64,000 bases of DNA from Phoronis australis (Eukaryota; Animalia; Phoronida). A program made the position numbers and the translations under genes. The DNA lies in assembly GCA_002633005.1 (NCBI GenBank), contig NMRA01000499.1:62001-126000 (forward strand), read 5' to 3'. This document shows, piece by piece, positions 3,447 to 54,908 of the stretch. How positions within the stretch are numbered: position 1 is the stretch's first letter; each line of letters begins with the position of its first letter. The notes under the pieces were generated by a model. The model was not told where the DNA came from. It saw only the letters and a list, made by a program, of their open reading frames with translations, and did not search any database.

Positions 3447-3779
3447 ATTATGATGACCTACAACACAAAGGTCGACCTGATCAAGGTCTACTTCTCTCCT
3501 TCGCTGTCTAAGATGAAGTCGGTAAACAAAAAAGCATACGAGATCAAAGAAAACATGATCATGAGCTCAATTGTCAACTCTGCTGACATCTGGGCAGGTA
3601 CTGTTTGTCCCAAAAAGGCCCGACCTGCTCTCACGCCGTACGAAGTCGGAGATCCGAAAGACCTAGAAGAGAAGAAATCCAAAACGGTTCTCGCGCAAGA
3701 GGCGAAAGATGTGACACAACGACAAGCCGTTCTGAATTGGGAATTGGAATGGGTTAATAAGAGAATGAATCCAGCTTAA
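3447..3779 (+). CDS. Paralogue A, terminal coding exon (rest of the gene lies upstream of the window)
   Basis: ttttcag|ATT ATG ATG acceptor; IMMTYNTKVDLIKVYFSP...LNWELEWVNKRMNPA*. About 74% aa identity (hand count) to 54579-54908. Confidence 0.9.
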   Translation: MMMTYNTKVDLIKVYFSPSLSKMKSVNKKAYEIKENMIMSSIVNSADIWAGTVCPKKARPALTPYEVGDPKDLEEKKSKTVLAQEAKDVTQRQAVLNWELEWVNKRMNPA

Positions 3780-17001: not shown

Positions 17002-17196
17002 ATGTTGCTGCCACTCGTTCTGTTGAGTTTAGTGGTAGCGTTCAGTGTCGCCAATTCGAATAAAAATCTGTACTTCAACTATGTAAATTCTGTGAAGCAT
17101 GAGCGAAGTGGAGAAGTATTTCACATGAAGAAGTCTGGTAAAGTGGCCGGATTGATTGATCTTGACGACAACGTTGAAAAACACGACGTGATCATG
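17002..17196 (+). CDS. B exon 1: signal peptide and start of pro-region
   Basis: MLLPLVLLSLVVAFSVANS hydrophobic leader; ATG|gtaatt donor. Same 195-nt length and MKKSG-x3-G-x-IDLD motif as C exon 1. Confidence 0.9.
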
Positions 17197-20100
17197 GTAA
17201 TTGATGCTTTGCATTACAAAATGAATTGAGTTTTTTTGTAGAAAAGTAATGTTTTGGACAAAAAATGGATTTTCGAAAAATAAAAGTAAATTTTGAGGAG
17301 AAAACGTTTAATTGTACACATAAATTCTTTTATACCATCTTGCTTATTAGTTTTTTTTAATTGTTCTTTCTTACCGGAAACCCGTTGGAGACCAGGGCCC
17401 GCTCCAATTTCTGACTTAAGTGTAAGATTTGTCTCAACTTTCAAATTTTGAAACTTCCACATCCAGTAAGTTAGTCGAACTTAGGACAAAATTTAAGTCA
17501 AAAACTTAAGACAAAACTTAAGTAAAAAACTTAAGACAAAACTTATTTCAAAACTTTAAGTCAAAAAGTAAAATCAAACTCAAGATCACTTCCTTAGAAA
17601 CGACGGAATTGATGTTTTATCTTAAAATTGGCTTAAATTTAAGATTTGTCTAAGCTAAGTTAATTTTCTTGGAAAGGGCCCCCATTGTATAATTGAATTT
17701 TTTTATCCTGAATGAGTATATGTTACACGTTATTGCATCATTCAAACTTGAACATGAACAGTCGTCAAAACAGTTTCCTTGTCAGTTGCTTTGCTTCTGC
17801 ACGTCTATTTACGACGATTCGACGATGTTTATCGTTGAGCGTGTTTACAGGCAACTTATTTAAACCAGGATCTGTGTTACTGTGTGCTTGTTTTCTACTT
17901 TTTTCGGACTTTTTGTTTCTCTGAGGCGGACCTTTTTGCCCATTTCGCCAAATAGGGGGGGATCGTACGATCCCCCGAGCCCNGGAGGGAATCTCGTTGC
18001 AACATTCCATCTGTTTTATGCATATACGAATATAATTGTAACCAAGAGAAAAATCAATGGTCTAGAGTCCAGTTTCATTAATTTTCCACAGAATAACTGA
18101 AAATATGTGTCCACCAAACTTTTTAGAATATGAAGGCAATTACTCGTTTCGGAGCAATATTGGTTTCTCGGATGAAATGGAAACATGACAGGCCTCAACG
18201 TTTTATCAAAATCGACAAGTTTCTTAACCGAGAGCTTGCTTTAGACCTCTTCATCATTGCTCACCGATAACCGTGTAGTCACTTCCATATTCCAAGCTTG
18301 AGATTTTCCCAATTCTGACTTTACGGAATCTGCTCCAGCCAAGATTTTTTTAAAAAGATGTAATGATGACGGAATTTATTAAGACTATGGAGCCTACGAA
18401 GTGATACGAAACAAAAAACTGCAAGCGGAAACGAGTTACTTACTCGTATCTACTACGGGGACCCCAAAATCACATTAAAGAAAATTCTAGTTAGAATGAG
18501 ATACTAAGTCGTGGGAACGAGTAAGTATCTCGTTGCCACGAGCAACGTAACACGTAGGAACGAGTTAGTTTCTCCGTACCAGACTGGTGCCACCAATGAC
18601 AGTTTAAAAGTCTTAACACTTCCTTTGTGCAAATTAATAGCTCTACGGAATAAGTTCTTGTAGCTCGTGTTTTAACATGGTGCAAAACACGTAGTGTCTA
18701 CTGCTTATTGTCACAGTGGGGGTTCGCCGAATTGCCACCCTTGAGTAACGAGACGTTTTTATAATACATTTCAGGATATAAAATGTGTACGCAATGGAAT
18801 TCGAGTGTATATGGACCCAGAATACAACAACTCTCATGGAATGCTGGGAGGTCACTACGACATCAGACAGGTTTGGTTACCTGGAATGATCGTCCGTTCA
18901 AGGAAGACGTGGAACAATTGCAAATCCATGGTGGATGGAACAGAAATAGACGGAATTTACCAAAAAGTCAAGGCAATCTGGTTCAGCACGGATCACCTGT
19001 TCATTTTTACTGTACCAGCCGGGTAAGTGTTAGTCTATCTGTATAGAATTACAGGCAAGGGTGACATTTGCTAAGTACCGACCAAATGATGAATACGTGA
19101 AGCAAGACAGCTACGTACTTCAGGCAAACGCTTACTGTTTACAGGTGTTTTAAACATCAATATATGAGATGTTGTATAATGTATTACGCACATCAACATA
19201 AGAACAGAAAAACGGTGAAATGTTTACAAAATCAGACTCAGCAGATGGATTTTGTTGTAAGCCAAGTGCCACCGTAGAATTCTTGACACGAGTCATAAAA
19301 GTAGTGCAGCCGAGTTACTGTGGATACATAAATTAAAGACGTGCAATATTCATAATCCAAATTTCAATGGGTGTTGCATAAAAAGTGTTTTTCTTTCCTT
19401 TGTTGGCACAGGCGGCGTAGTCATTACAGTTACCGAAACGGTCGAGTTGCCCAATTGCGCCCGGTGTGCGTGACAACGTAGGATTCTTTTCACAAAATAA
19501 TACCGCTGAGTTAAAGACATGTTGAGCTAATTACTCTCCATTTAAACTTGACAAGATACAACCAATATTTTTAGATTCTCTGACAACTTCGAAGACCTGG
19601 AATACACCGTCCACCACAAGAGAGGAGATTGGACAGGAGTCCCTGATGCGGAGAAGGAAGAGCACAGACATCGCGTCCGCCGGTCAGTGATGACTAACGA
19701 CCAGCTTATTTCGAAATTCACCCAAGGGACGCTAACCCAGTCAATTTTTGAGCCAGGTCATCATCTTTCACTAACCTCCAACTGGGATAGCAACTCAAAA
19801 AAAGTTGATATGAGTGCACGAATAGACACTTCTGAGAAGCAGGTTAAGTTTTACGACCAGTCGCAACAGTCGCAGTACTCTCCGAAGAACAGCAGCAACA
19901 ACTGGTGGGACCTTTACTGCAAGGAATGCTACGCTACACTTGAGGGCGATACATCCACGTGAGTATTCTTTATCAAATGCGCTCGTATTGCTTCGTTCTA
20001 CACACAATTTAGACTACACCTTTACCGTAAATGATTTTTATTTGATGATTTGGGCAGATTATGGAGTTGTAAACCAGTATTTTGGAGTCAACGAATCGCA

Positions 20101-23100
20101 ATATTGACCACGGGTATGGTAACGCTGTTTCAAATTTTGATTCACAATTTAAGCACACGAATATTTGTATGCCAGTGCATATTTCCGTTATCTCTGTCCG
20201 AGCGTCCGGCGTACTGCTTCGGGACCTTAATGAAGCTGAAAACAGGGCTCCCGTTTCATGAAACTATTTTAGACACGCAAAACAATGCTGTCATTCCATC
20301 GCGTGTCACGTTGCGCTTGTTGAACAATGATGTTGATGTCATGCCAACAATCAAACTTGAGACTTTCATGAAACGAAACCCAGACGACCACGAATTTCGG
20401 GAAGATCCATTGAACTACCGCTGTGACAATTTTATTTCTTTTACGGTTGCCTCTGCATCGTCGGAATTTCATAAAATTTAGTAAATGTTTTTATATTAAG
20501 GAGACGACGATACCTTTGTATTTTGGGACGGCATTAACGATTCTGCGCCTCCTAGTGGCTATTTTTTTTAAATTTTCGAGTCTGCTTTGGCGTCCGCCTT
20601 GTTATCTGCCAAACCTCTTGAAGGATCATTAGGGAAATTAGCAGGTGTGTCTCTGATGAAGAGACCGCAGGTGACGTTCATTTTTCCGACGGGTTTGACT
20701 GCTGTGGAGCTCCCTAGTGGGGATTTTGTTTTTTGAAAATTTGGCAGTTGTTTTTTTTTAGCTGACAACAGATGACGAATTTCAAATCAATCCGATGGCT
20801 TGTGGCCTCTTAGAGACAATTTTTATTTTTACGTTTTTCTGTGGTTCTTCGGAGTTCATTGATGGACTTTCATAAATTTGGCAAACAGGTTTTTATTAGT
20901 GAGACAAAATGGCTTCCTATTTTCAGACAGATTTGACACATTCTGCGCCACCTAGTGGGCATTTTAAAAAGTTTCGAGTTTGGTGCTCTCCTCTCTGTCG
21001 CCCAAAATGCTCAAACGATCATAGTGAAAATTCGCGGATGTGTTTCTGAAGAGAATACCGCGGCTACTGTGGATTTTCCAACTGGTGTGACTACCCTGGC
21101 GCCCCTAGTGGCGTTTTTGTGTCTACTGCTGTATCTCCTTAACCCGGTTTTACAAGAAAATTGGCGGATGTGTTCCAATGGAGTTGACAAGGGGTTACAA
21201 CGAGTTTCTAACCAATCCGACAATTGCTGTGCTTCCTAATAACAATTTTAGCTTTTTACGCTTGGTTCTGTAGCTTCAGAATTTACCAATACGTTTTCGT
21301 GCGATTGGGCAAATAATGAATCTATTAAGAAAATGGCAATGTTCCTCCATTTTTGTATGGATTTGATGTATTTGGTGTCCCAAAAGTTAAATTCTAGAGG
21401 TAGGCCAGGCTCAGGGGCAGTTTTGAGGTAAGCGTTGCACGTCGGTTCAGTGAATCTGGTTGTCTTGCATTTGTGAACTTGTTGGGAATGAGAAAAGGCC
21501 ACTTGTCTGGCTATAGATGCACTCTTCAAGATAGCAAACCACTGTTTCTCTTGTGCATTGCTGAGTAGCGACTGAGAAATCGGCAGCGATTTCAGGTAGC
21601 CCTCAAACAAGCCAGAATTACCAAAACAGCTTTATTGTAGATAAAGAAAATAAACACCCTACAAATAAATCATTACAGTACACAAACAATATAATACAAT
21701 TATTACAATACAATATCACAGTCTACGGTCTTACAATAGGTTTAATACTTATCAATTATCTAGACAATCATGTACACAAATAGGTAACCACAAATTAAGG
21801 AACGCATCGAGGATACGATCAATGACACACGATAGTTACTGTACACAAAATATAAATAACATTTTGTATCACACGTACCTGATGTAAACTGATTGACACT
21901 GAGACGGACACAAACTTTTCCGACACCACTGGACAGGTGAAGACTGAACAAATACACCAAAGTAAAACCTTCAACTCAAAACAATGACGTACATATTTCC
22001 AAACTGATTGGCCGATCACTCAAAACAACGACTATGAACAAGTGAAAAGACCAAAATGGTTACGTAATAACACAGAAACATTGCAGAAGCGAAGTACCTA
22101 GGGTGTAATGGTAGCTCACTGGGCCACAATTACAGGTGTGCTTCATAAACATCCAACCACGGTTCAAAGAAGGGCAAAATAGAGAAGCTCTTTTTCATAC
22201 TTTTTTTAAATAAAGCAAAACACACGAACACAAATAGAACACAGGACAAACATAGTACATTGAAAATATCAAACTGTCACATTAATTTCCTATGAACGAC
22301 ACCGCTTGTATTAACAATGCCAATACTTCATTATTTAAATAAAAAATCAACTTGTCAAGCAAGTTTTCACACCTGTGTTAACGATTGAGACATTGCAACA
22401 TTGCAATTAACCAAAAATGAGCAATTTAAGGATGCAAATCAAAAATTGAATGATTTGATAAATGTTCACTAATATTGAACTGTTGGCCTATTGCATGTCT
22501 TAATGAACATGAAATTCAAGAAATTTGTGCCCGGTATTGCTCACAAATTGTTTCAAAAGTATTACTGATGATTGTAAAATAAATTTTTACTTCAATGTGA
22601 AAAGTGTCGTAGGAGGCTAGAGGAAGAAATTGCAGGGGGAAGTTTCGATGGGGCACTTTGGCGAAGTTTAATTCATCTGTTGAAATAACAGTCACCTTTT
22701 TATGACCCTTTCGGTGTGCTCTCTTTGTGATATGGGTTTAAAATCTTTGGCTAAAGTTGACGAAAATTAATCGACAATTGAGGTCTATGTTTGACCTACC
22801 TCTTCCTACCACCTGTCTCTTAGTTCCTACTTTATCATTCCTTTTGTTACCAAGGTAACATCACCCTTCCTATACTGTTAAGAATGATCCTGTTGAAAAA
22901 GTAAAATCATCATTTATTGGGTATAAACATGAAAACGGTCCAGGTATTTGTAATTAAAATTACAGTTTTATATTCTTCCACTAGAAAGTGATTTTATTGA
23001 TATGGAGAAGTAACTTGCTCGTTTAATTTGTTTAATGGTTCATCAAGTCTCTTTTAACATTTAAAAAATGCATTAGACAATATTTTTCATCAATAGTGAC

Positions 23101-26100
23101 TATGTTAACGTAATTTTTCATTAAATTCGTAAGAAAATTTTCAGAAACTTTTGAAAAGTACACATATGAATGAGGTGAAAAACGTCATCTTTTCATGTTA
23201 TGTTTTTTAGGAAGTTGGTAATCAAAAAGCAAGACATCAAGGAATTCAAAGTCGAGGTAAGAAGTGTAGGTTGTATCAATTAAAGCCCAATTATAACGAT
23301 CAATAAGAAAATTACGGAGAAGTTCAAAAAAGGGACTGCAAAATCTTGGGCAGTTAGCGGTGTAAACATGACGATACTACGGAAAATTTGTGAAATATGA
23401 GCGCACGCTGACATAGCTTGTCTACGTCACATGATAACGCAGATTACATGGCTGTCTCGCGGCGAGAAAATTTAGCCAAAATTACGTGTTCTCACTGAAA
23501 GTACAAGGCAAAGTCTTCCTTTTTAGCCAGGTCATAGCGTTACTGAACTCTGCCCTGCGTTACACGTTAAGTGTCAGGGAGCCACATACCCAGAGAGGTA
23601 CGTCCAGTGGGGGTCTTAGAACTAAATTAATCATTTCTGTAAGGCTTCAGAAAGTTTCTTCGACAACATTTCCCTTGAAGTTCTAAATACTGGAAATGGT
23701 CGTTATTTCTTAATTGCACATTCGCCATTGTTATCACCTTGATAAATGAAACATCAGTACACTTCAATTTAGATAAATGGCGTCATCAAACTCAAGCGGA
23801 AGTTCAAAGTTCACACAAAGGGTGACAAGAGTGAGAAGGTTGAAGTTATGATCAGTAGCTCTAAAGGCAAAATCGACATACCAGTGATGATATTTGATGA
23901 CGTTCTTAAGAAAGACGTCATGATGCATCTGAACTATGACTTCGCGCAGTACATCAATGCAAACATAGAATTCGAAGCAGTTCAGTCCAAATTTGAATTC
24001 GACATATTCGAAGAGGGCATTTTGAACATGAGTAAGTACACCTGTTTGCAAATTGACTTTCTGTTTTTGGATTAATCCTGACGATTTCTGATATCTAACT
24101 ACATGGGTAACTATGTTGAGAAACGATTTGAATGGCTCTCACAAATTAAATCTCACCATGGTTTTACAATAATTGTCCCTATCAATCCCTCGATGCAGAT
24201 CAGCATTAGGTGCAACAGCTGACTTTCGAAATAGCCGCGCCATATTGAAATTCACTTACCCGCCAGACGGCGACCGGGTCTTTGGTGGACAGGCGTTCAG
24301 CGCCACCTACAGATCACATGTAATGCGGACGGGAGGTAGTTCCACCTAATGGTATAATCAGCGTTTTAACACCATTGCTGCTATTGCCGGGAATTTTCCA
24401 CTACTGTTCGGTGGGATGTACTGTTGTCTTACGAAAAAGGTAAACATTTTGAAATACCAATGGATGAACAACAAGGACATCATGTTCCATAATTTCGATA
24501 CCAGCAGGTGTCAAACAATTAAAATATAATAAATGAACTGGAACTAGTCAAATAATAGGAGGGAATGACAATGGAATTGATTCCTCTGCTTCTTAATTAA
24601 TTAATCATTAAGTAGTAGTTGAGTTTCTGTCCACCAAATCTGAGTCGTGATCAATGGAAGTCACTTTCGTGCTCTCATTACTCTAGAGAGCGTCAATATG
24701 GAAAGTCGCCTGTTATAGAACCAGGATAACCTGTGGTATTCATGAGGAAGTGGTGGGTGACATTTTCAGCTTTCACTCGGCAATCAGACGGCAGCTTGAT
24801 GATGGATCACCAATACACACAAATCAACACGACAGCTGTGGACCCTGTGTACGACTTTTGGTCTGTTCTTTCGCGAGCCCAAGTGGATTTCAAAACTAAG
24901 GTAAGGAAAAATTCGACGGCAACAATGAATTTGGATACATCTAAAATTATACGATGAGTTTTAGAACTATTTAAATTTGTCAATGGATTTGACTTAACAT
25001 CGACTGGCACAACGCAATACAACGAAACAGTTTCCTACGATAATGGCCTGATACAACGTAACCGAATTTTGAGAACCAGTTTTCTCATCTGAATAACAGG
25101 CATCAAACTGATTCTCAAAATACGAGCAAGTTATATCAGACCGTACTGTACCCTGACTGCTGAACATAAGGGAATGGTACCTGTTACGTGAGTATGGATC
25201 TGAAGTTCAGAAGAATCATAACTAAAACATAGCTATTGCTTGAATCTGTGTCCTAAGTAAATATATAAAGGCTGTTGGATGATATTTGAGAAGCTTGAAA
25301 GTGAAAAAGTGACGTGGAAGACGATGTGAAATTTATCATCGTCCTCTGTGGACTGTTTGACGAGGCGGAGGATGTTATCCGGTTATGGAGCAGCAGTTGG
25401 ATTCTGTTTTTGTTCCAGTCACAGATACAGGCGTGAAAACAAATTACAAGTGTATTGGCTAATGATGTCATATTTACCACACTATTTCACGAGCGGACAA
25501 TTTATTTGCAAGATTTTTGAATAATAATCCATTGGTGTTACAGTTCTACAATTTTGGGGTGTGAAAAAAGGCTTCAGCGCCGTAAAAGAGGTTATTGTAG
25601 CTTACAACTCGAGTAGAACGCAATATTTTAAGAAATAATTTACCACCGATTATAGGTCCCTTATGGCTACATTTGAGCCAAATTTGACGGAAGACAGCTG
25701 ACGCCCACCTTGCCGCTGAGTGGCTGGCCATCCTCTCGCGGACAAGTAATTAAGAATAATCTGAACTCAGATTATTGTTTCTTTCAACAGTTAGACCTTG
25801 ACTTCACCATAAGTTGGGCCGATCAAACTCGTGAAATCGACGGGAAGGAGATTTTCTTATTTCAGCTAGGAACTAACATGAAGTATAAAGTTGGGTAAGT
25901 AGCATAAGCAGCAGCATACCTTAGTATACTTTTATGAAGTTACAAGTCTTCTTAATTATAATAATAAATAATCTGAGGATATTGTACTGCAACAAAAATT
26001 ATCGCGTTGATTATACTTAAATTCGTCGAACTCTTTCCTTTTTTAAAAAAAACTCGTTTCTCAATTCTTAAGTTTTTTGTGTCGATGGCCTCTGGCCCAT

Positions 26101-29100
26101 AGGCACATTCACACATGCAGCCAACGTATTAAAACTATTTCTCTTTTTCGATGACCATCTTCACCTTGTAGACAAGGCGACTTATTTATGTGTTATTTTA
26201 CACCGTCAGTCTTGCTGGTCATCACATATTACTGAAAAAATCTCGAATTCCAAAACTGCGCCGGAATCTATGTTCCACGTCCTACATGTATAGCAAGTAA
26301 GGAAAGCTGGGTATCACTTGGAAATTTTGTCGCCGTGTTCCTCAGCCACAGTAGCATAGCTTTAACAGGCTGAGCTTTGCATCTTGTTAGGCAATTTGTG
26401 ACTACACATCTTTCGAATTTTCTATCAACCTTTTAAGTTACTGGTCTTGCAGGTTCGTGGTGCGCCGCATATGAGCCTATTGAAATGAAAAATAAAAATT
26501 TCTCCGCGGTTTTGAATGCCTCTTTGGCTGTTTATAAGGAGGGTAACACGGAAAGCGTCAGTGACATGCTTTAACAAGAACGCTTATCGAAGATGTTTAA
26601 AGGATCTAGCCTATTTTTAAACGGTCATAGCCTTCCTTCTTGTATTGCTGATTCATTCCGTACTATTCAAGAAGACTTATTGTATCTTATGGGCATTCAT
26701 AAAACGATTTGTTTTATAAGACATACATCCATCCATATGGATATAGTAAATGATTGCGTTCTTTCGAACTGTACTTTTTTCGTTGAAGATCTTTAGCGGT
26801 CGAGCCCTCCTTAGGACGTTCCTTAGGCACATAAATGTGTCCTAACTAACGTTCGGGAATGTGTCACTTCGGCTATGAAAATGTGTACGTCTAAAGGAAA
26901 CAGATAGGGATACACTAAGTCTGAGGAATTGCTCCTCACAGAGTCCATAAACATGTGTTACAATGCACTTGGGTCATGCCTTGAAACACATGCATGTGTG
27001 TGAGAAAATATTATTTCCTGAACAATGACAACAACAACATTTTATTTTTCGCAAACTGGACGCTATATGAAATGTGTATCAACACTTCAGATTATCCCAG
27101 AAAGTGGATTTTTCCACCTACATCTACGGCTACGGAACAGTCTGCATGCGACCAACTCACGACTTACGGTTGTCCTCAGAAGTTTCTCAGTCGTCGTTAG
27201 AGTACAAAGTGCTGGGCAAGATCTTCTGGTAAGACGTAATAAAAAATAACACATAAACGTGATAATTAGTATGTGGCGATGTACATTTTCACCTCCGGTA
27301 ATTCTTCTATGGGAGCGTCCACATATTACGTCATCCCAAATTTGGCACTTTTTACTGCCCTCTCCTCCCACTCTGCCATTACCCGTCATCATGATATAAA
27401 AAACCCGCCCACTATTTAATTACATCATCACTGCCAACCTCCCGCCCCCTGCTGTTGGAAGGACCGACAGTTCGTTAGAGATTCCGTCTTTGATTCTACT
27501 GACAATGTCTCTTTATAATCGTAAGTTGTATTTGCCGCTGTCGTATTCAGCATTGAAATAACGTACGCATTTCAACTATCAAATTTAATGAATGTTTCCA
27601 TACCTTACTACGTCACAGTTGTAGGATAGGGCTGGGAAAACAAAATATTTTAATAAGGGTGGCCTTTTATGGCCCACATATTTATATGTGGGTGCATATT
27701 GCCGTGATCCCTGTCCGGGCGTCCTTGCAGGATCTTAATGAGATGTGTTTCTATGGAGCTGGCGACAGACGACGACGAATTTCGGGCCGATCCCCTAGTG
27801 GCAATTTCAGTTTTTTTTTGTTTACCTCTGTATCTTTAAAATTCCTTGATGGATCTTCGTGAAATTTGGCAACGTCTTCTAATTTTCAGACGGACTTGAC
27901 GTATTTTACGCCACATGGTGACCATATTTTATTTTTAGTACGTTTTTTTCGTCTGCCTTTCTGTCTGCCAAACCAATCTTAGGATGATTATCATGAACAT
28001 TGGCAGGTTTGTTCCTGATGAGAAGACGGTAAATGACTTGATTTTCGGACGTGTTTCAATGCTCTGGCGCCCCCTGGTTGCAATTTTATTTTTTGCGTCC
28101 ATGCTTTATCTCCTTTTAAGTAGTTAAAACATGTCGACAAGTTTCAGACCAGTCCAACTACAGCTGTACCCCTAGTGATAATTTTATTTTTTACGTTTGC
28201 TAAACTACAGCTGTACCCCTAGTGATAATTTATTTTTTACGTTTGCTTTTTATTTTTAACTTAAAAATTAATGGATGTATTTTTGTGAAATTTGGCAAAT
28301 ATTTTTCTATTAAGGAGACAACAATGCCTTTTTATTTTCCGGTGGATTCAACATATTCTGTGCTGCCTAGTAGCTATTGTTATTATTTTGAGTTCGTTTT
28401 TGGCGTCCGCCTCGTATCGGCCAAACTGCTCAAAGGATCATTTTTAAACTCAGAGCTGTTGTGTTCCGGGTGAGAAGACTATGACTGACGTTGATTGTCG
28501 GATGAGTCTGACAACTGTGGCGTCCCCTAGTGGTGATTTCGTATTTTTTAGATCATGGCTGTAGCTCCTGATTCCTTTGCAGAATATTTGTGATTTTTTA
28601 AGGTGTTTTTCTGCAAATGTGGCAATGATTAACCGCCGGCTTTTTGGACGACTTTGACTACCGCTGTGCCCCTATTGACAATATTAATTTCTACGTTTGC
28701 CTCTTTGGAGGCCCTTAGCGGATTTTCATGAAATGTGTCAAATATTTTTTATTAGAGATTACGCCTTCCCAATGTCGAACGGGTTCGACGTACTTTTCGC
28801 CATCTAATGGTATTTTATGATACTAAAACATCCTGGGAGCCACTCCCTTTGCGGAGCAGTCTCGAGCGTATTTCAACTCTCCGCGTTGCTCTTGTAATAT
28901 TAAGTTACAACACTGTGGTCAGTCGCCACTGAATCGGCAATCTGGGGTGCAAAACCTGACAAATTTAACAATAAACTTGAAGTATAGTAAGAAAGCAAGA
29001 TACAGTGACATGTAATGTGGTGGAGATATTCCAATAAAACCACTAGATGACGTCATGATGAGTGTAACCCCCTCCCCCTGTCACAAATCGTCATCTTTCC

Positions 29101-47100: not shown

Positions 47101-50100
47101 ATACCTAACGGGGGACTTTTCAGTTTAGACTAATGAGGCCACGAAAATGACCGATTGATCGCTACTCAGATTTTGTGGACAGAAATTCAATTAACGGTAC
47201 TACGGAATTGCTTCTCCTGTAAAATAAAAATAGTTAATGAGAACACAACAGAATTTGGTAAAAATTACCAAACAAGCCTAAGTGAGTCATGTCTAGACCA
47301 GATGATTGTTAATGCTGACAATGTGAACAGTGATGACAATGGCTGACAAATCTGGACTCAAGACTAAGTGCACAATCTCGATGTAAACTCCAATGTTTGC
47401 ACTTTACTTTCAGTTTGGCCGACCGCGATTGCGAGAAGACGGCTTACTCCTCTGAATTTTGCAAGAAGACGCAATCTTACCGGAAGCAACAGATGTTGAG
47501 GGTGGAAGATATGTTAAGAAGGAAAGCTCAGCTCACTACCAGCCATCGAGACTACGCAAGAGTGAAAAAGGCACTGATGGCATGCCTCGTTGATAATTGC
47601 ANCCACAGCGTGTAAATTTAAGCTTGGAGAACTGAATTACTATTTCAACTTTAAAACAGATGCTGGGTTGTAAGTTCTAACTCCTGCGGTGTTTAAGATT
47701 AATCATTATAGGTGCATGTAGGCCCTGCCAACTACCAAAGTATCAAAACATACCAACTAAAATTAACTGTCATTTATTATTCTAGTGGACCTGAAACGAA
47801 CTGTACGCTCACAATGAGCGTGTTATCAATTTATATGGAAGGGTAGAGCTCCTGAGGAATCGTAAATAATCATTCTTGGAATTCTGTGGGTGAAGAATTG
47901 TGGAAAATCTAATTCAACGGTGGTCAAATGCAAAAATCATCTGAGCTTTTAGGGATAAAGAAATCAAATTTTTATTAGCTGCAACGTCTAAAACGTTTTA
48001 TGCGCACAATCTCTGGCCAATGATACATCGACTTTTGTGGCGGTGGGCGACAGATTTTCTCAAAGTACTTCTCTGTCACATCAACGAGGAAAAGGTGAAG
48101 GTTGCGGAACTCATGATGTCAGACCCGTCCGTATTGAAGCTCACACCAGTGTTAAAGTAGAAATAGCGGACCTAAGGGAAATCTATCCATGTCATTCGCA
48201 ACACAAATAGGGTATTTTAACACTGAAACATGAACCAAGCTGTCCAAAGCAGATCACGTGATCGATTTTGGGCTAAGTAAAATATAGCTGGTGATTTTTG
48301 AGGGAAACACAAACCACCTCGTGTTCATCACAGAATAAAAATATTTAGCCACGGTTATGTTACAAATTATCAGAAGTTCAGTGGGATTCAAAACAATTTT
48401 ACGAAATTTTGTTGTAGGGTTTTCTGAGCCAAGCGATCCGTCATTCGGTCGACTAAAACCACATTTGCAGGCTCTCAGCCGCTTCCGGATTGGAGCAGGG
48501 AATCGAGTTTCGAGCTTCACCTTGCATTCTGACACTAATTTCACTTGACAGTCTGACCTTTCGCGACAAAACATTGAATACAATTGTTCAGAGCTGAAAC
48601 GATACTGGTGACAACTGATCCATTTAGTAGAGTGCGGATTGACAAAAAAACAATAGGCTTGCTCCCTGTTGGAAAGCTTTGGAAAGAGATTTGACCTGAT
48701 AGACTGGCTTCAGGTAGACAGACCATGCGTCTTGGCGGCAGGATGCAGGTAAACAGACCGTGCGTCTTGGCGGCAAGATGCAGGTAAACATACCATGCGT
48801 CTTGGCGGCAGGATGCAGGTAAACAGACCACGCGTCTTGGTGGCAGGATGCAGGTAGACAGACCATGCGTCTTGGTGACAGGATGCAGGTGAACAGACCA
48901 TGCGTCTTGGCGGCAGGATGCACGTAAAATAGTATATTTGGTGAAATAGGGTTACATGTGACCTGTGATAAATTCAAAACTGAAGTTTGATTTCAGTCAT
49001 ACCTAACGGGGGACTTTTCAGTTTAGACTAATGAGGCCACGAAAATGACCGATTGATCGCTACTCAGATTTTGTGGACAGAAATTCAATTAACGGTACTA
49101 CGGAATTGCTTCTCCTGTAAAATAAAAATAGTTAATGAGAACACAACAGAATTTGGTAAAAATTACCAAACAAGCCTAAGTGAGTCATGTCTAGACCAGA
49201 TGATTGTTAATGCTGACAATGTGAACAGTGATGACAATGGCTGACAAATCTGGACTCAAGACTAAGTGCACAATCTCGATGTAAACTCCAATGTTTGCAC
49301 TTTACTTTCAGTTTGGCCGACCGCGATTGCGAGAAGACGGCTTACTCCTCTGAATTTTGCAAGAAGACGCAATCTTACCGGAAGCAACAGATGTTGAGGG
49401 TGGAAGATATGTTAAGAAGGAAAGCTCAGCTCACTACCAGCCATCGAGACTACGCAAGAGTGAAAAAGGCACTGATGGCATGCCTCGTTGATAATTGCAA
49501 TGAATGCATCGAAGGTGGGATGCTGTATGATTTGCTAAATATATTAATTCTTTGCCTGCATTCCCCGTTGATAAAGTTAGTATCACGTGGCCTTAAATAC
49601 AAGTGTACTCTGTTAGCCAAATTTTGGCATTTTTCTGGTGCCCTACATAACGTGGATCCCTTGCAGGGATGGTGGTTTAGTATGCATGTGACACGTACAG
49701 GTATCAACAACTTTCGGTCGAATTCGTGTTCCTTGGTTGGTTTTCATGACGTTTGGCGAATAAGTTTCTACTATCCACACCGTTTTTTTTTTATATTTGA
49801 ACGTCTTTGGCGTATTCTGTGCCCTAGCTTTAACAGCTACTGTTGGAGTCTTTTTGGTGTTCTCCACTCTGACAAACCGCCCATTATAAAACTTGGCAAA
49901 CGTGTTCCTAATGACAAGAACAACTAACGCTGATTTTAGGATTTACTACTACTGTGCTCTAGTGGTAGTTTTACGTCCGCAGCTATACGTCATGTAGGCC
50001 TATCTCCAGAGCCCCCTGTGGGATCTTTGCGAAATTTGGCAAGAGCATATATATGGAGGTGGCAACGATGAACGAATTCTTTCCAACGAATCCGACTACC

Positions 50101-53100
50101 GATGTGCCTCCTAGTGGCAATTTTATTTTTCACGTTTGCCTTAAAAGGTTTTTATGAAATCGACAAATGGGTTTATATTAAGAAGACGATGCCTTTTTAT
50201 TTGTGTACGGATTCTACGTAATCTGCACCAGCTATCAGCCATTGTTATGTATGATACTTACCCTTAGAAGCCTACGTTTGCGATTCAGTCGCGGCCGCAT
50301 TTCAACGATTTGCCTTTTATCATAGTGAGGATACATGTAGGTTTGAGACGTCGACGTCATTTCATGTAGCGAGTAACGAGGAAACGTCCCTTGATTAAGT
50401 CTGTTCAAAAGAATATTTATCCATAAATTAGCTTACCCCTGTATGTTTTTGAGCGATGAGGTGATCACTTCCGCGATGCTGCGAGCGCCTTCGGCGATTC
50501 TCAGTTATCATTGAATCTGACATCATTTTGGAATTGCTAAGAATGTTGTATAATGTTTACGAGGGTTTGTGTTAAGGTAAATGGCTTGTTCTGAATAATT
50601 TTGCATTACTTTTTACGATGTGGTGGCGCTGACTGCTGCTCGATTGAAAATAGAATATTTCTGGGAATATACGAAAGGATTGCAAGAGACGAGAGCAAAG
50701 AAATTGTGCTACCATGATCAAACATTTGGCACGGCTCTGATCTCCGAGTTCGAAGACACGTGCTCTGTTGCTTACATTGCTATGTGAAGCTGCGTTATTC
50801 TGTGGCTCCTCCGCAAATTTTAAAAGTGTTATTTTTGTGGTCGCGAAGTTTACGTCGAACTTCGATGGTCACGCCAAGTGATGGACACCCAAATTGAGAA
50901 AGCAGTTGAAAGGACTCAGGTCTGGCGAGGGGCAGAGTCAGGAAATGGTGTTTTGATGTTTCCATAGCTGCGTGGCTTCTTCCGCCATCTTGCTGCATTC
51001 ACATGTGCCTAGGATCAACTTTATTGAATGAACTATTAAGCATGTTATTGTAATGCTCAATTTTAAATGTGTTACGTAATTTTAAAACGTCCTTTATATC
51101 ATTTCAGGGCCAGTTTGGACAAGAAAAGTGGAGAACTGTATGACGGTCTTGAACTTTTACAAAAACAACTCTGGCAATCCATTTGGTAATCTAGACAGGT
51201 TGAGCGTTTACAACATGGCCAGCGAATCAGCCATCAAGAGTGCCAGCACGTTTGCCTGTGACGACAGAAAATACTTGTGTGTGGAAAAAACGGAGCTGTT
51301 TGGCATTTTCGGTAAGCTTGCATTCTTAAGCAAGGCTTTGTAGTGCGGCGAGGTATTAGTGTAAGGTAAAGCAAACGTTGCTGCCGAAAGCATAGAAATA
51401 TCTAGAGGAAACGCACCAATTCACAATTGTCGCCCCACCTTCCGGAACCTTGCAGTTATTCATTTAGGCTCTGCAGTGAGCCTTCACTTCATTACTGTCA
51501 TAATATAGGTATATCAAACCCAAAAGCTTGAGAAAAGTCGTAAATGATCCAAACCATCAAGTGTAGATAATTTGCTTTTTTAACAACAAGCAGGTGAAGC
51601 CAAAAGTTTTACCATACGTCTATCCACGCTGATCTGTATATTACAGCGAACCAGTTCACCAGAATGTAATTTGGCAATCTCTATGTTTGAGAGTTGTTTC
51701 ACCAATCTTTTATGGAATACTTTAATTTGATTTAAGTTAAGAACCGTCCTAATTTCAGACCAATATAACTACAAAGGTACCGCTATCTATTGACACGACG
51801 TGTCACTTTGGAGATTTAACGGTAGTTTTAATGTTACTTTTACCGCTAGAGCAAACTTAGCTCTTTCAGTCTGCTGTAATTGCTTTGGTGTGTTTTTTTC
51901 AAAAGGATCATTGTAGTTAAAGGTGATGATCACATAAATATTCTCCGAAACAGAATCCTTTTTGTTGATATCTACCATGTAGAAGTCTGGCGATGAACGA
52001 ATTTCACTACACCAGAAAACCACAATGACTTTCCGTTTCAAAGTATTCGCAGTAGGAAACCGTGTTTTGGAGTAATTAAGCACCGAATTTAAAGCTTATT
52101 GCAGATGACTGGGTGATTCAGGAAGAACAAAAGTATCGTTTGCATATTAAAGCACATGCAATTTGACATGCAATTCCACGTGCAAATTACTTACATAATA
52201 TCTGAGGTCACTGGACATCGTTTTTAAACCATGGCATGCCTGCAAACAAAAAACTGAAATCGGTGAGGCACATGTACCGTACCGTGGCAAAGAGTAATGG
52301 AAAACGACGATCCTCGGTTGTTCCCCCTGACGTCACAATGTCACTGACAAACTGCTCTGACAAAGAACCATGACCATGACGTTTGACAAGATTGAACATA
52401 AATATCGTAGACTATGATTCAAAATGTTGTCATCTGTGCCCAATGAAATAAATTTCACTCGGATAAAGAGTCAATCAACTAAATGAAGCATTTTTATAAT
52501 CTATTAATAAAGCATATACATGTTTTTTATTTCTCTTACAGAGATAATTTTTATTGAGGAGTCTTTCAGAGACCACCCAACTGGCTCAATCATTGCCAAG
52601 GATAACCATTCAGTATGTGGACCGGTTACGTATTTAGGCCACGCTGAAAATAAGCTTTAGCAAAAAATAGTACAGTACAAATTACCTTAGAGGAAAAATC
52701 AATGTTAGTGTGGTATTTACAACTTATAAAGACAGTGTGGTGTGGTTAGGTACTGAGCTACAGACTCTCATTGGGGTAACTGGGTTCAAAGGCTGGCTTT
52801 ACTAGCAAACAACAGTGCCTCCTATACCTGTGTGCTAGTTCTTGGATGGGAATGGATGCAAGATCAGTGGGGCTGTCTGGTGTGTTGCACGCTCATTTCA
52901 TAAGTAACACATGCCCTACGATTCTTATGCAAATTAGCGAAAGGCAGTGTGGCCTTGTGGGATAAATGTCCGCTTCTTTTACTCAAGGTCGTGGGTTCGA
53001 GTCCTACTGGTGCACACTGCTAGACCCTTAAGGCAGGTCTTTGACTCCTCAGCTCGGTAATAAAATATAAAAATGGTTCCAGGTGATCAGTGCAATCGGC

Positions 53101-54908
53101 CTACAAGAGCGGCCTGCGCACGTCTGGTACAACGTGTACCAGACCGCCTGCAGTTATATGCTAATTAACTCCTCACCACATTTCAGCTCCAAGTATCCGT
53201 GCGCGTTACAAGCCAGACAAGGATAGGAGTATTGAAGTTGAACTGTTCGGTGAGAAAAACCCGTCTCCACTTCTAGATATGATCCAACAGATGTTAGTCA
53301 TGCATGCTAAAGGAAATGTGACTGTGTTTATTGACAGTTACGGAGATCTGGGGCTCATGAAGAAACTTTTGAAGGTAAGTTGAGGCTACAAGTCGTCACA
53401 TCTAGTACTTTTTAGCAAAATTTTTGAATGGTTATCAGATAAGATAAAACAAGAAGTACAAAATACGGTGTTGCCGGTAATGTGTATTAAAATGTCCATA
53501 CGCTCAGAAACCAATACGAGCTTGCCTGTTGCTAACCCATACACTTTAGACTCGCTCACGCGTGACTAGTGTACGCTTGTAATTAAACAAATATCGATAT
53601 TCACACATGGTCAAATGTTGGTATTTAGAACCCAAAAATGGCAGGACCGTGGCGGATCCGAGTTCATTATTGCCTCGTTTTCTTCGTGTATGGATGGCGC
53701 AGGTTGTTACCGACTGGTGTTAAAAGCTTTCGGTGCGACGATAGACTGACTGAAGATTGGTGCGAGTTGATCACTTTATTAATTTCGACCGTACGTTCAC
53801 CTGAAGTCTACTCAAGCAAAACGTCCGACATAATGCCTGTTCTATGCTCCAGCAAGTGCTGCGAAGCCTTGGCTTGTGATGAACTTTTGAGATCCTTCCA
53901 GCAACTGTTACACGCGTTGATTCAATAAGCTGATGGCTCTGGCTCTCTGTTGACTAACACTGTCACAGCTGGTTCTCTTCATTGCATCTCAAATATAACT
54001 TCAACCAATCAGCTATACCAGGTATAGCTCATTGCTTCAACTGACTTCAACTGAACTTCAACACCAACTGTATTCAACTTGATCTCAACTTCAACTCTAC
54101 CTCAGCTAACCCATGCCTGGTTATTTATTGTCTCTTACAATGTTCTGGAACTTTTCACCAACTCAACGACATTCTAGAACTTTCCGGAATCTACCCAATC
54201 CCTCTTTAGTCTAATCCTGACAATTTTTTAGTCTGAATCGGGAACGTTAATAATTGTATGATCACGTAATTTGCTTGTAATGTGATATCTCGCGAAGCAT
54301 TGCGTGGTCTTGAGTTTTGTTTTCGCGAGATTCTTGCATCTACAGAACGCGCGCCTGAGCTCTAGTGGGTAACTGAGTGAATGTTCCATTAATTCGATTG
54401 GGCAGGTATTCAGGTATTAAATGACGAATTGTTGGCAGTTTTTAGATTCAAAATGTAGAATACGAATTGACGTTATTACAGGGTTTTCTTTCAGGCAGAA
54501 TGAATGTTCCACTGCAGCTTAGTGCTTTGTAAGAAATAAAATACCAACGGCACAAAAGTATAAAAATTTTCATTTCAGATTATGATGGCCTACAATAAAG
54601 ATATCGATTTGATCAAGATCTACTTTTCTCCATTGCTGGCTAAGACGAAGTCGGTAAAGAAAAAGTCATACGAGATCAAAGAAAACATGATCATGAGCTC
54701 CCTTATACGCTCTGCTGACATATTTGCTGGTACTGTTTGTCCTAAAAAAGCTCGACCCGCCCTCACCCCGTACGAAATGGGAGACCCGAAAGAGCTGGAG
54801 GAGAACAAATCTAAAAAGCTTATCGCGCAAGAGGCGAAGGATTTGCAGCAACGATTAGCTATTCTGAATTGGGAAATGGAGTGGGTTAATAAAAGATTGA
54901 GTGTCTGA
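17002..54908 (+). CDS. Paralogue B, complete 21-exon gene (about 1517 aa): secreted protein with signal peptide, furin-cleavable pro-region, beta-rich region, 2x Hedgehog-N-like domains, peptidase M15-like domain and a C-terminal CD38-like(?) domain
   Basis: Hand-spliced exons: 17002-17196, 18775-19022, 19575-19958, 23211-23256, 23773-24031, 24770-24900, 25791-25894, 27091-27228, 29489-29695, 31819-32039, 32233-32565, 34102-34261, 36726-36899, 37226-37360, 37893-38487, 42841-43042, 45654-45750, 49312-49514, 51108-51311, 53187-53374, 54579-54908. Sum is 4554 nt, every intron phase is compatible and there is no internal stop. Exons 1-4 and 21 are supported by the paralogues in the window. Confidence 0.85.
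17394..17683. mobile_element. PIF/Harbinger-like MITE with internal aaacttaagacaa repeats
   Basis: Termini agggcccgctccaa ... ttggaaagggcccc, with repeated subterminal motifs in both orientations. Confidence 0.55.
18775..19022 (+). CDS. B exon 2 (pro-region)
   Basis: tttcag|GAT...GCC GG|gtaagt; DIKCVRNGIRVYMDPE...TVPAG, homologous to C exon 2. Confidence 0.9.
19575..19958 (+). CDS. B exon 3, containing furin site RVRR (19672-19683)
   Basis: ttttag|A TTC...TCC AC|gtgagt; FSDNFEDLEY...HRHRVRRSVMTND...WWDLYCKECYA, homologous to 62886-63266. Confidence 0.9.
20148..21375 (+). mobile_element. Decayed copy of the same HINE-like family (intron 3 of B)
   Basis: Similar 5' end and tctgtccgagcgtccggcg, with repeated cctagtgg modules; 3' end truncated. 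Boundaries approximate. Confidence 0.6.
23211..23256 (+). CDS. B exon 4 (46-nt small exon)
   Basis: ttttag|G AAG...GAG|gtaaga; KLVIKKQDIKEFKVE. A 46-nt homologue sits at 63719-63764. Confidence 0.88.
23773..24031 (+). CDS. B exon 5 (beta-rich region)
   Basis: tttag|ATA AAT...ATG A|gtaagt; open frame with alternating hydrophobic pattern; phases fit. Confidence 0.82.
24770..24900 (+). CDS. B exon 6
   Basis: ttttcag|CT TTC...ACT AAG|gtaagg; phase 1 to 0 fits neighbouring exons. Confidence 0.78.
25791..25894 (+). CDS. B exon 7
   Basis: tttcaacag|TTA GAC...GTT GG|gtaagt; LDLDFTISWADQ... Confidence 0.8.
27091..27228 (+). CDS. B exon 8 (frame absent from the ORF track)
   Basis: cttcag|A TTA TCC CAG...TTC TG|gtaaga; LSQKVDFSTYIYGYGTVCMRP...KVLGKIF; phase 2/2. 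Confidence 0.78.
27664..28895 (+). mobile_element. Near full-length HINE-like element (intron 8 of B)
   Basis: Starts ttttatggcccacatatttatatgtgggtgcatattgcc and ends tttcaactctccgcgttgctcttgt, matching both ends of the 459-3241 family. Confidence 0.72.
29489..29695 (+). CDS. B exon 9: start of Hedgehog-N-like domain 1
   Basis: tcccacag|G TGG...GTC AC|gtaagt; EQACGKIIFAVERGFDEFV aligns to Hh GASGRYEGKITRNSERFK. Confidence 0.85.
31819..32039 (+). CDS. B exon 10: Hedgehog-N-like domain 1 with Cys insert
   Basis: atttcag|A AAA...AAT C|gtacgt; ILFKNEE...CADRHMS matches Hh IIFKDEE...ADRLMT. Confidence 0.88.
32233..32565 (+). CDS. B exon 11: core of Hedgehog-N-like domain 1
   Basis: KLMVINAFDE...SIHTEGRGAQI...LGQMAVMAEFDYV...YVHVGVK matches Hh [10 protein letters not shown]...SLHYEGRAVDI...LARLAVEAGFDWV...HIHCSVK. 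Confidence 0.9.
33588..33865. mobile_element. MITE with GGGGTCTGT TIRs (Harbinger-like)
   Basis: ggggtctgtttcatgaaaagtga ... tcacctttcataagacagacccc. Confidence 0.65.
34102..34261 (+). CDS. B exon 12: start of Hedgehog-N-like domain 2; followed by a GC donor
   Basis: ctttcag|CG TAC...AAA GG|gcaagt; ACGKITLPITRSNKQQFK repeats the exon 9 motif. Confidence 0.82.
35782..35960. repeat. Palindrome of about 180 bp (hairpin MITE)
   Basis: tctagagcccgagtggattttggagaattat ... ataattctccaaaatccactcgggctctaga, extending out to atagattattacatg / catgtaataatctat. Confidence 0.85.
36726..36899 (+). CDS. B exon 13: Hedgehog-N-like domain 2 with Cys insert (absent from the ORF track)
   Basis: tcttcag|C TTA TAC...TTC AG|gttgaa; DVFFTNPKRNDEWCGMQGRRCIDCR...CRDRVMTR. 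Confidence 0.87.
37226..37360 (+). CDS. B exon 14: Hedgehog-N-like domain 2 (absent from the ORF track)
   Basis: ttttag|A CTG...GGA CA|gtaagt; LRRLAKLVDEMWEGANKLVVERAWFEP...HHLTG matches Hh [25 protein letters not shown]...HYEG. Confidence 0.88.
37893..38487 (+). CDS. B exon 15: end of Hedgehog-N-like domain 2, acidic linker and start of peptidase M15-like domain
   Basis: LGHLAQCAGFDFV...HLRVCVK, followed by FLRIDENLVECV...ILVTDGYR...N...RHQSGQAV (M15A-type S/DGYR and HxxGxA motifs); AAG|gttagt donor. Confidence 0.9.
39168..39578 (+). repeat. Dispersed repeat ending in a hairpin of about 160 bp; second copy at about 58206-58635
   Basis: Both copies share tgaatggttcagtg, aaactgaaaattcttat and tatcctatctcgaattcatttcatctgggaatg. 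Hairpin spans about 39415-39578. Confidence 0.75.
40020..41215 (-). mobile_element. 5'-truncated, decayed RLE-type non-LTR retrotransposon (HERO-like), antisense in intron 15 of B
   Basis: Frameshifted peptides WKAAEAVDETESRLRHKGIVG...GRQGLG; YDTLPTPVNLRIW...CRGC...TLERVLSNCKEAL...HDKIL (degenerate CCHC knuckle); LDIVMWS...LTESTVSWE (PD..D/E endonuclease); AAEEATMWLWL. Confidence 0.8.
42841..43042 (+). CDS. B exon 16: end of M15-like domain
   Basis: atttccag|GGC GTC...CAA G|gtaaaa; LGIGVHEDELYFDFRP resembles the M15 GIGxYxxFVHxDxR motif. Confidence 0.85.
43381..44658. repeat. Three-copy 410-bp tandem repeat: a 43-bp minisatellite plus an embedded MITE
   Basis: Identical MITE copies at 43470-43705, 43880-44115 and 44290-44525 (tatgt|cagtggcagatct...agatccgcctctg|tatgt), separated by gtagtgtttgtgccctgcaactactcggtcatcttcgtgtgtt units. 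Confidence 0.92.
44761..45091. repeat. 30-bp minisatellite, about 11 copies
   Basis: Unit tcggaacctaggtcttcttaccgtgatcta. Confidence 0.95.
45654..45750 (+). CDS. B exon 17 (partial second copy at 47603-47669)
   Basis: gtttcag|GT GGA CCT...GGG TT|gtaagt; phase 1 to 2 fits. Confidence 0.8.
45684..49499. other. Direct duplication of about 1.9 kb across N47602; probable uncollapsed haplotype overlap
   Basis: 45684-47601 matches 47603-49499; both copies break mid-exon exactly at the N. Confidence 0.85.
46778..47022. repeat. 35-bp minisatellite, 7 copies (6 copies at 48711-48920)
   Basis: Unit caggtaaacagaccatgcgtcttggcggcaggatg. Confidence 0.93.
49312..49514 (+). CDS. B exon 18 (truncated duplicate at 47414-47601)
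   Basis: actttcag|T TTG GCC...GAA G|gtggga; LADRDCEK...ACLVDNCNECIE. Confidence 0.83.
49780..50315 (+). mobile_element. 3' fragment of the same HINE-like family
   Basis: cctagtggcaattttatttttcacgtttgcc module and the terminal gcgattcagtcgcggccgcatttcaacg motif. Boundaries approximate. Confidence 0.55.
51108..51311 (+). CDS. B exon 19
   Basis: atttcag|GG CCA...TTC G|gtaagc; ...RLSVYNMASESAIKSASTFACDDRKYLCVEKTELFGIF. Confidence 0.85.
52943..53015 (+). mobile_element. tRNA-derived SINE head or tRNA-like pseudo-element
   Basis: A-box tggccttgtgg and B-box ggttcgagtcc at tRNA-like spacing, but poor acceptor and anticodon stems. Confidence 0.55.
53187..53374 (+). CDS. B exon 20 (absent from the ORF track)
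   Basis: atttcag|CT CCA...TTG AAG|gtaagt; PSIRARYKPDK...KNPSPLLDMIQQMLVMHAKGNVTVFIDSYGDLGLMKKLLK. Confidence 0.85.
53961..54221. mobile_element. Possible solo LTR remnant
   Basis: TGTCA...TGACA inverted termini. Its right half (ttctggaacttttcaccaa...ttctagaa...cctgac) recurs at about 56640-56743. Confidence 0.4.
54579..54908 (+). CDS. B exon 21 (terminal)
   Basis: catttcag|ATT ATG ATG...GTC TGA; homologous to 3447-3779. Confidence 0.9.
   Translation: [109 protein letters not shown]

Follow-up and report, generated by a model that had tools for sequence, protein, structure and literature searches.

A long-form Hedglet gene of Phoronis australis with two Hedgehog-N-like units and predicted M15A-like and CD38-like folds

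By its sequence, the gene at 17002..54908 (+) of the window is a long-form Hedglet and is neither a Hedgehog nor a Hedgling. The window is the whole stretch of DNA analysed here, 64 kb from one contig of the phoronid Phoronis australis, and has the character of animal DNA, being AT-rich and intron-rich. The product is predicted to carry four folds in one chain: two Hedgehog-N folds, an M15A fold, and a CD38-like fold. This anatomy appears to be undescribed. A search of open-access text (subscription journals and supplements lie outside this scope) returned no report of a Hedgehog-domain/ADP-ribosyl-cyclase fusion or of the long architecture.

Hedglets were named by Jagers and Roelink in 2021 from an alignment of ~105 residues and were recorded in lophotrochozoans, amphioxus, and echinoderms (PMC8052667). 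In the portions of that paper available to us, they are predicted to be non-catalytic, and their distribution is called enigmatic. In the open-access text searched, the word "Hedglet" occurs in a single work, in its journal and preprint versions. An earlier note on this DNA, made from the letters alone, had proposed a distinct and uncharacterised family. No functional study was found, and the family already has a name. The debate on the origin of the Hedgehog domain rests on Hedgehog, Hedgling, and bacterial Hedgehogs. To these, Hedglets add a third lineage among animals, and this locus supplies the full anatomy of the long form.

Gene structure and transcripts

The gene is composed of 21 exons totalling 4554 nt, which form a single frame of 1517 aa with one stop. 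On the forward strand, exons 1-7 lie at 17002-17196, 18775-19022, 19575-19958, 23211-23256, 23773-24031, 24770-24900, and 25791-25894; exons 8-14 at 27091-27228, 29489-29695, 31819-32039, 32233-32565, 34102-34261, 36726-36899, and 37226-37360; and exons 15-21 at 37893-38487, 42841-43042, 45654-45750, 49312-49514, 51108-51311, 53187-53374, and 54579-54908. All acceptors are AG, and the donors are GT in 19 cases and GC in one, after 34261. This model comes from an independent splice-and-codon scan that was then corrected with RNA joints, and it arrives at the same length as the 21 exons and ~1517 aa proposed earlier.

Four RNA runs carrying the same species label were compared with positions 16800-36799, and three of these with 29400-43300. 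Contigs of run X4, presumed to be RNA, join exons 5-6-7-8, 9-10-11, and 11 through 16. The contig over exons 11-16 is 3628 nt long, and 2197 of its letters extend past the last aligned piece. Between 32523 and 36725, the same contig has 201 unaligned letters, which correspond exactly to the remainder of exon 11 plus exon 12. The GC-AG intron (34262..36725, +; donor GCAAGT) lies inside the second Hedgehog-N-like unit; its joint is deduced from this 201-letter spacing, which fits a 160-nt exon 12, the contig letters there being unaligned. Raw stranded reads of runs X1 and X2 cross the joints 25893/27090, 32037/32233, 36900/37227, and 38488/42844, with 2-7 reads each, and over exons these reads are confined to one strand. 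Because the X4 contigs and the X1/X2 reads join their exons, the three LAS units described below are placed on one transcript; the question whether the exons lie on separate transcripts is answered by one X4 contig (exons 11-16) that links all three. Identity between these RNA pieces and the window is 83-95%, so they come from a diverged allele or a close paralogue. For the joints of exons 1-5, 8-9, and 16-21, the evidence is splice signals, phase, and collinearity with homologues.

This is a real gene with one long product. It is extremely improbable that the long protein is an artefact of joining exons from separate genes or from a pseudogene. Such an artefact could draw on the divergence of the copy behind the RNA, on the lack of RNA-confirmed joints for exons 1-5, 8-9, and 16-21, and on two assembly overlaps inside the window. 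Against it, 21 canonical exons keep one open frame, a single RNA contig covers exons 11-16 and continues for 2197 letters, and BLAST aligns the protein end to end with homologues P0007 (aa 7-1513, E 7e-94) and P0032 (aa 2-1515, E 3e-104).

Three candidate features were rejected during modelling. The frame at 24199-24337 is out of phase and is skipped by RNA, and an exon 10 start at 31768 and an exon 12 end at 34318 were ruled out by RNA. Four intronic repeats (17467-18133, 24804-25470, 33475-34141, and 34809-36142) have deep RNA coverage on both strands, and are therefore present in many transcripts of the animal.

Neighbouring copies and assembly overlaps

Three copies stand in tandem here, with about 36-63% protein identity, and the gene lies between the other two. 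The last exon of the upstream paralogue lies at 3447..3779 (+) and has 82% nucleotide identity. Over 109 codons of the two last exons, dN is 0.14 and dS is 0.59, a sign of purifying selection. From the downstream paralogue, the window contains the first three exons, at 59226..63266 (+), with 36%, 58%, and 58% identity, and RVRR is present there.

Two direct duplications flank single N letters. The first is 1.9 kb long (45684-47601 and 47603-49499, 93-99% identical), contains a truncated copy of exon 18 at 47414-47601, and is likely to represent two haplotypes that overlap at an assembly join. The second is 557 bp long (60418-60974 and 60976-61531, 99%), doubles exon 2 of the downstream paralogue, and is likely an assembly overlap of a similar kind. 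Tandem repeats occur in introns and upstream at 43380-44655, 44761-45091, 46778-47030, 48711-48928, and 15659-15847, with periods of 410, 30, 35, 35, and 37, respectively. An imperfect palindrome of 388 bp (87%), made of 21-bp units, is found at 12484-12864. At 40654-41180 (-), short frames resemble by eye a decayed non-LTR retrotransposon end and have no Pfam match, and Pfam searches with ten other frames of the window gave no match.

Signal peptide, pro-domain, and beta-rich domain

The N-terminus is signal-like. A likely signal peptide (about aa 1-18; 17002..17055, +) is the sole strongly hydrophobic stretch of the protein, with a Kyte-Doolittle 19-residue mean of 2.13 at residue 1, and by hydrophobicity the earlier proposal of a signal peptide is likely right. 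Because the mean never exceeds 1.11 past residue 7, a transmembrane segment is not indicated. The signal peptide is followed by a likely pro-domain (aa ~19-184; 17056..19683, +), for which a small beta domain is predicted and which ends in the RVRR reported earlier, at aa 181-184 (19672-19683). Among 10 long forms in which this end is present, 8 have an R-x-K/R-R site at this position. Next is a beta-rich domain (aa ~185-525; 19684..29558, +) with a predicted long-stranded sheet. Both predictions come from the model of a mussel homologue, P0005 (pLDDT 79), composed of a small beta domain, a disordered linker with a furin-type site, and the long-stranded sheet. A homologue profile of the N-terminal part matches the window protein at aa 7-352 (E 6e-13).

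The protein contains 35 Cys residues, most of them conserved. All 15 homologues compared have a dibasic site ~30-40 residues before the C-terminus (15/15), and the window protein lacks it. The site is missing from both the window gene (54760-54908) and the upstream copy (3630-3779), in which a conserved tail motif, NWE..W, is kept.

The fold of the beta-rich domain has no clear match: the best in Foldseek is the lipid-transfer protein MTP (E 0.022, TM 0.20, prob 0.75, rmsd 22.8), and the best VIA score is Z 6.3. One exon row in the alignment of this domain was misaligned (0% identity). One alternative view of the whole protein starts from this sheet. The protein would be structural or a carrier (egg coat, haemolymph, shell or cuticle matrix, lipid carrier), with the sheet doing the work and the enzyme folds serving as spacers. 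The size and long strands of the sheet, the MTP match at its probability of 0.75, and the processing sites at both ends of most homologues are in its favour. The E, TM, and rmsd values make that match a weak one, however, and conservation is lowest in the beta domain (21%), which the short form of the family lacks. We regard this view as decidedly doubtful.

Hedgehog-N-like and M15A-like units

Three units with LAS folds follow. In bacteria, LAS folds act on peptidoglycan, and their zinc motif consists of H-x6-D plus H-x-H (PMC6027127, as far as available). Hedgehog-N-like unit 1 (aa ~548-734; 29625..32501, +) has H671 / Q678 / H730 at the zinc positions, and unit 2 (aa ~790-958; 34203..38031, +) has H908 / W915 / R953. 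The two share 27% identity (E 3e-16) and are 31-34% identical to a bacterial Hedgehog. Both contain an insert of ~25 residues with four Cys at the position of the Hedgehog calcium loop, and several calcium ligands are changed.

Profile scores and a homologue's fold bore out the earlier identification of two Hedgehog-N-like units. Built from 6 bacterial Hedgehog domains, the profile scored 26.6 bits over aa 617-734 and 34.3 bits over aa 856-958; the best of 200 shuffles of the protein reached 2.6 bits. On single exons, Pfam HH_signal is weak (E 3.4e-4, 20.8 bits with a cut-off of 22.1, and E 0.14). Homologues pass this cut-off, and the family profile matches Shh with E 2e-19. Fold models are those of homologues, chiefly the oyster protein P0019 (27% identical over aa 592-1513; mean pLDDT 84.9). 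Its unit 2 superposes on Shh/Dhh with Z 19 and an rmsd of 2.3 over ~147 residues, and its unit 1 matches VanX (Z 9.4) and MepA (Z 8.4). The HMMER- and Foldseek-type searches that the note had proposed thus gave weak HH_signal matches on exons and Hedgehog/DD-peptidase folds on homologue models. The Hedgehog-N motifs it had listed are generally present, except that its second "H.EGR" is actually HLTGQ.

The third unit (aa ~1018-1145; 38209..42945, +) is M15A DD-peptidase-like, with H1085 / I1092 / Y1137 at the zinc positions. ESM Atlas features score 0.90, in clusters with 22-47% Peptidase_M15_3. The phrog_894 endolysin was matched in 6 of 33 members. In P0019, this unit superposes on 1lbu, an M15A peptidase of Streptomyces (Z 10.1, rmsd 2.4 over 116), and Foldseek matched it to phage M15 peptidases. 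Single exons searched against PDB sequences gave no match. The M15A assignment made earlier thus holds for the features and for the LAS fold of the homologue, and fails for the zinc motifs, which are not kept.

In Hedgehog, the zinc triad is numbered H141/D148/H183, with E177 in addition (PMC6027127, in part). Neither the complete triad nor an E177 equivalent is kept in the window units, which have H/Q/H and H/W/R. The second zinc ligand, Asp, is found in 0/26 Hedglet Hedgehog-N units, and both bacterial controls (2/2) keep H/D/H and the catalytic Glu. In the third unit, H-x6-D plus H-x-H is intact in 0/11 long forms, the window having H/I/Y. The first zinc His is kept in all three LAS units of the window protein, and unit 1 keeps both H671 and H730, unlike most homologues. 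Because none of the three keeps the H-x6-D / H-x-H zinc site, they are likely pseudo-peptidases. The former cleft residues of the Hedgehog-N units vary widely across species.

Animal-type and bacterial-type LAS domains had been claimed for one chain. Both are there, and "animal-type" is a loose term, as Hedgehog-N domains also occur in bacteria (PMC6027127, in part). The plasmid search returned Hedgehog-N-domain matches only. At one plasmid locus (L001, 2149-3811), a bacterial Hedgehog gene adjoins a gene with an N-acetylmuramidase domain, a neighbourhood in line with a cell-wall role of the bacterial domain. In a tree of 28 Hedgehog-N units, from which animal Hedgehog was left out, both window units are unplaced, and the tree is therefore silent on a descent of Hedglets from Hedgehog.

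The Hedgehog-N units bear on a further alternative, in which the protein is secreted and modulates Hedgehog signalling. Lacking lipid anchors, it would serve as a decoy or carrier, with its Hedgehog-N units attaching to Patched, Cdo/Boc/Ihog, Hhip, or heparan sulphate. The Z of 19 on Shh, the profile match to Shh, and the presence of Hedgehog in Hedglet-bearing animals (PMC8052667, in the parts available) would suit it. The N-terminal Cys and Patched-binding arm are absent, however, as is the Hint domain; the calcium loop has the four-Cys insert and several altered ligands; identity to a bacterial Hedgehog is just 31-34%; and the zinc cleft, which Hhip uses (PMC6027127, in part), is broken. 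On this balance, a modulator is unlikely.

CD38/ADP-ribosyl-cyclase-like domain

The earlier inventory of domains was incomplete, for it missed a C-terminal CD38-like fold in what is the best conserved part of the family. The CD38/ADP-ribosyl-cyclase-like domain (aa ~1222-1478; 49346..54788, +) is recognised from the two-lobed cyclase fold of P0019 residues ~625-882. This region matches the whole CD38 ectodomain, its helical lobe included (Foldseek E 1.4e-4; VIA Z 11.2-11.8 over ~200 residues). Z values are 11.1 for the Aplysia cyclase, 10.3 for CD157, ~6.5 for unrelated background, and 5.8 for a compact bacterial toxin domain. ESM Atlas features score 0.86, which is a lead only, and the Atlas's own low-confidence model gives TM 0.60. 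At the sequence level, a profile of the domain found no cyclase in the PDB or Pfam. Pfam Rib_hydrolayse has no match at E<=10 in 11 rows, and a PF02267 search found nothing in 0/2 plasmids and in 0/4 and 0/401 genomes, with the controls likewise silent.

Across 9 long forms, mean identity is 41% in the cyclase-like domain, 30-38% in the LAS units, and 21% in the beta domain. Both local copies share a 13-residue basic insert inside the cyclase-like domain.

Cyclases need two Glu and two Trp residues; neither CD38 nor bacterial cyclases can do without the catalytic Glu, and in one of these enzymes both Trp are required as well (PMC12605009 and PMC12356396, each in part). TLEDTL is the cyclase signature (PMC3329556, in part). 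Residues were mapped by motif register, from the TLEDTL signature and an assumed CD38 spacing together with predicted secondary structure, and not by superposition. We take the catalytic Glu of CD38 to be E226, and the register depends on our assumed spacing of CD38 residues. In this register, the signature position is Glu or Asp in 16/16 sequences (E1337 in the window), the first Trp position is Phe or Tyr, and the second Trp is absent in 16/16. Leu or Ile occupies the mapped place of the catalytic Glu in 16/16, likely L1407 in the window, with no Glu one residue to either side. The domain thus appears to have lost its catalytic Glu. Invariant polar residues are E1337, N1370, Q1380, D1399, R1452, and R1467, along with the near-invariant K1408.

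These residues raise the alternative of a cryptic enzyme. A rearranged site in the CD38-like domain would bind NAD+, cADPR, or a similar nucleotide or turn it over, or else a substitute ligand would let unit 1 hold zinc. In favour, the cyclase-like domain is the most conserved part, with Glu or Asp in the signature in 16/16 and an aromatic residue at the first Trp position. D1399 is invariant and K1408 nearly so, and unit 1 keeps H671 and H730. Opposed to this are the essential role of the catalytic Glu in CD38 and bacterial cyclases (PMC12605009 and PMC12356396, each in part), the lack of a Glu at the mapped position or at +/-1 residue in 16/16, and the silence of Rib_hydrolayse at E<=10 over 11 rows. 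A cryptic enzyme is rather unlikely.

Long and short forms of the family

When exon 15 was searched with HMMER against 1.84 billion representatives, 27 matches were returned, of which 14 sequences were inspected. P0010 (ankyrin-like) and P0025 (a Cys-rich repeat protein) were dropped as spurious. Exons 3 and 15 gave no match in word-based protein searches. The named homologues, all uncharacterised proteins, come from Sinanodonta, Batillaria, Haliotis, Saccostrea, Pinctada, Argonauta, Octopus, Lingula, Asterias, and Glandiceps. The mollusc proteins (bivalves, gastropods, and cephalopods; 1340-1490 aa) match end to end and are collinear with the window protein. In a tree of the C-terminal part, the window protein groups with these long mollusc forms, on a long branch. 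A search for Hedglet relatives in bacterial genomes by peptide patterns, which is a weak test, found none.

A short form of 940-950 aa occurs in a sea star and an acorn worm and is homologous to window aa ~790-1511 (P0024 of Asterias, E 2e-69 over aa 793-1511; P0008 of Glandiceps, E 7e-60). At its N-terminus, a second M15-like unit replaces the beta domain and unit 1. In the short forms P0008, P0024, and P0036, two M15-like units flank one Hedgehog-N (internal match E 4e-12, 4e-9), and residues 44-117 of P0024 have a weak NCBIfam MepK match (E 0.011). Some bivalve Hedglets carry an insert of ~300 residues in Hedgehog-N unit 2 (P0020 of Saccostrea, ~600-930; P0016 of Pinctada, N-terminal part). 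This insert partly resembles a lysozyme-type domain by eye, with no Pfam match there; such a domain, if real, would favour a cell-wall link. Conservation indicates that the folds are kept under selection across molluscs, with the shared part also found in echinoderms and hemichordates.

The Hedglet assignment was made because the Hedgehog stretch of P0024 is ~80% identical, by eye, to the published Acanthaster Hedglet. The window protein has a Hedgehog-N-related domain that connects to Shh in searches and is more diverged than that of Hedgling, loss of the zinc residues, and homology beyond the Hedgehog domain. Seven Hedglet entries in the available part of the published supplement give stretches at residues ~270-420 (PMC8052667), as in the ~940-aa short form. 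That arrangement, with a single Hedgehog-N at residues ~270-420, is not matched here, where there are two units and a beta domain. The long protein is taken as a variant, because the portions of PMC8052667 available do not define Hedglets by architecture.

Proposed function

A search of open-access text by accession found no expression or proteome papers on these proteins. The explanation ranked first, which we hold at somewhat short of an even chance, is that the protein is secreted, trimmed by furin, and serves as a scaffold, made of four dead enzyme folds, for binding to surfaces rich in glycans. The signal-like N-terminus would direct secretion, furin may cleave at RVRR, and disulphide bonds would hold the protein together, as the motifs suggest. 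The dead domains may now act as binding modules, and their ligand could be a glycan or peptidoglycan, in mucus, matrix, or the bacterial cell wall. Binding is proposed because the four enzyme folds appear to have lost catalysis, and a glycan or cell-wall ligand because three of the folds descend from peptidoglycan peptidases. The scaffold is placed first because Shh binds heparan sulphate (PMC8052667, in part; structures 4c4m/4c4n) and because the gene is tandemly expanded and fast-evolving. Structures 4c4m/4c4n appear among the structural matches of the P0019 model. Three tandem copies (~60% identity) would be more typical of a secreted family that changes fast than of a morphogen with a single gene copy. 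Several points speak against the scaffold: the variation of the clefts between species does not point to a single conserved ligand, unit 1 retains two of its three zinc ligands (H671, H730) and all three units their first His, the invariant polar residues of the cyclase-like domain, the best conserved, could be a working site, and the cyclase residues are mapped by register.

A wider reading makes Hedglets an ancient family of bilaterians, assembled from cell-wall peptidase and NAD-cleaving folds as a bacterial-style effector kit. A rewired CD38-like pocket would couple extracellular sensing or turnover of NAD or cADPR to the binding of receptors or glycans by the Hedgehog folds. We consider this quite unlikely. 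If true, vertebrates and insects would have lost what amounts to a third branch of signalling by Hedgehog domains. With four apparently dead folds and a shared part conserved from octopus to sea star, Hedglets offer a test case for the non-catalytic reuse, in animals, of bacterial wall-peptidase and NADase folds.

Comparison with known systems

Hedgehog proteins (Shh/Ihh/Dhh, Hh) are secreted and have the Hedgehog-N fold, which occurs twice here. The window protein lacks Hint/Hog, the N-terminal Cys, the zinc triad, and the E177 equivalent, and adds the four-Cys insert in the calcium loop and three extra domains. That it is not a Hedgehog, as first proposed, agrees with the absence of Hint/Hog matches on exons and homologues, with a first Cys at residue 69, and with a C-terminus that models as a cyclase fold.

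In Hedgling, the Hedgehog-N domain is followed by vWA, cadherin, and EGF repeats and a transmembrane segment. Pfam matched no vWA, cadherin, or EGF in 16 homologues and 22 frames of the window, and there is no transmembrane stretch, so the view that this is not a Hedgling also stands. Hedgling of sponges, cnidarians, and choanoflagellates resembles the window protein as a large extracellular protein whose Hedgehog-N lacks the full peptidase motif (PMC6027127, in part). It differs in that the Hedgehog-N units of the window are internal and doubled.

The M15A carboxypeptidase of Streptomyces albus (1lbu), phage M15 endolysins, and bacterial Hedgehogs have the LAS fold in common with the three units. 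Unlike them, the window units are without H-x6-D and H-x-H, and their host gene is animal and intron-rich. Rusticalin is likewise a marine invertebrate protein with an M15 peptidase domain of bacterial or phage type (PMC6339383, in part). It differs in having short Cys-rich repeats and one L-Ala-D-Glu peptidase domain, and its abstract mentions neither a Hedgehog-N nor a cyclase domain (PMC6339383).

CD38, CD157, and the Aplysia cyclase (PF02267) share with the C-terminal domain the whole ectodomain fold and a TLEDTL-like motif with its Glu. Identity to this family is 11-13%, and the catalytic Glu and the second Trp are apparently lost. The domain is fused behind LAS domains and is without a membrane anchor.

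Published Hedglets share with the window gene a divergent Hedgehog-N domain without catalytic residues. The text on Hedglets in the available parts of PMC8052667 describes no architecture, M15 unit, or cyclase fold. In the short form, with which the positions of the published Hedglet stretches agree, the order is M15-like, Hedgehog-N, M15-like, and cyclase-like. The window gene differs from it in having a beta domain, two Hedgehog-N units, one M15 unit, and the cyclase-like domain.
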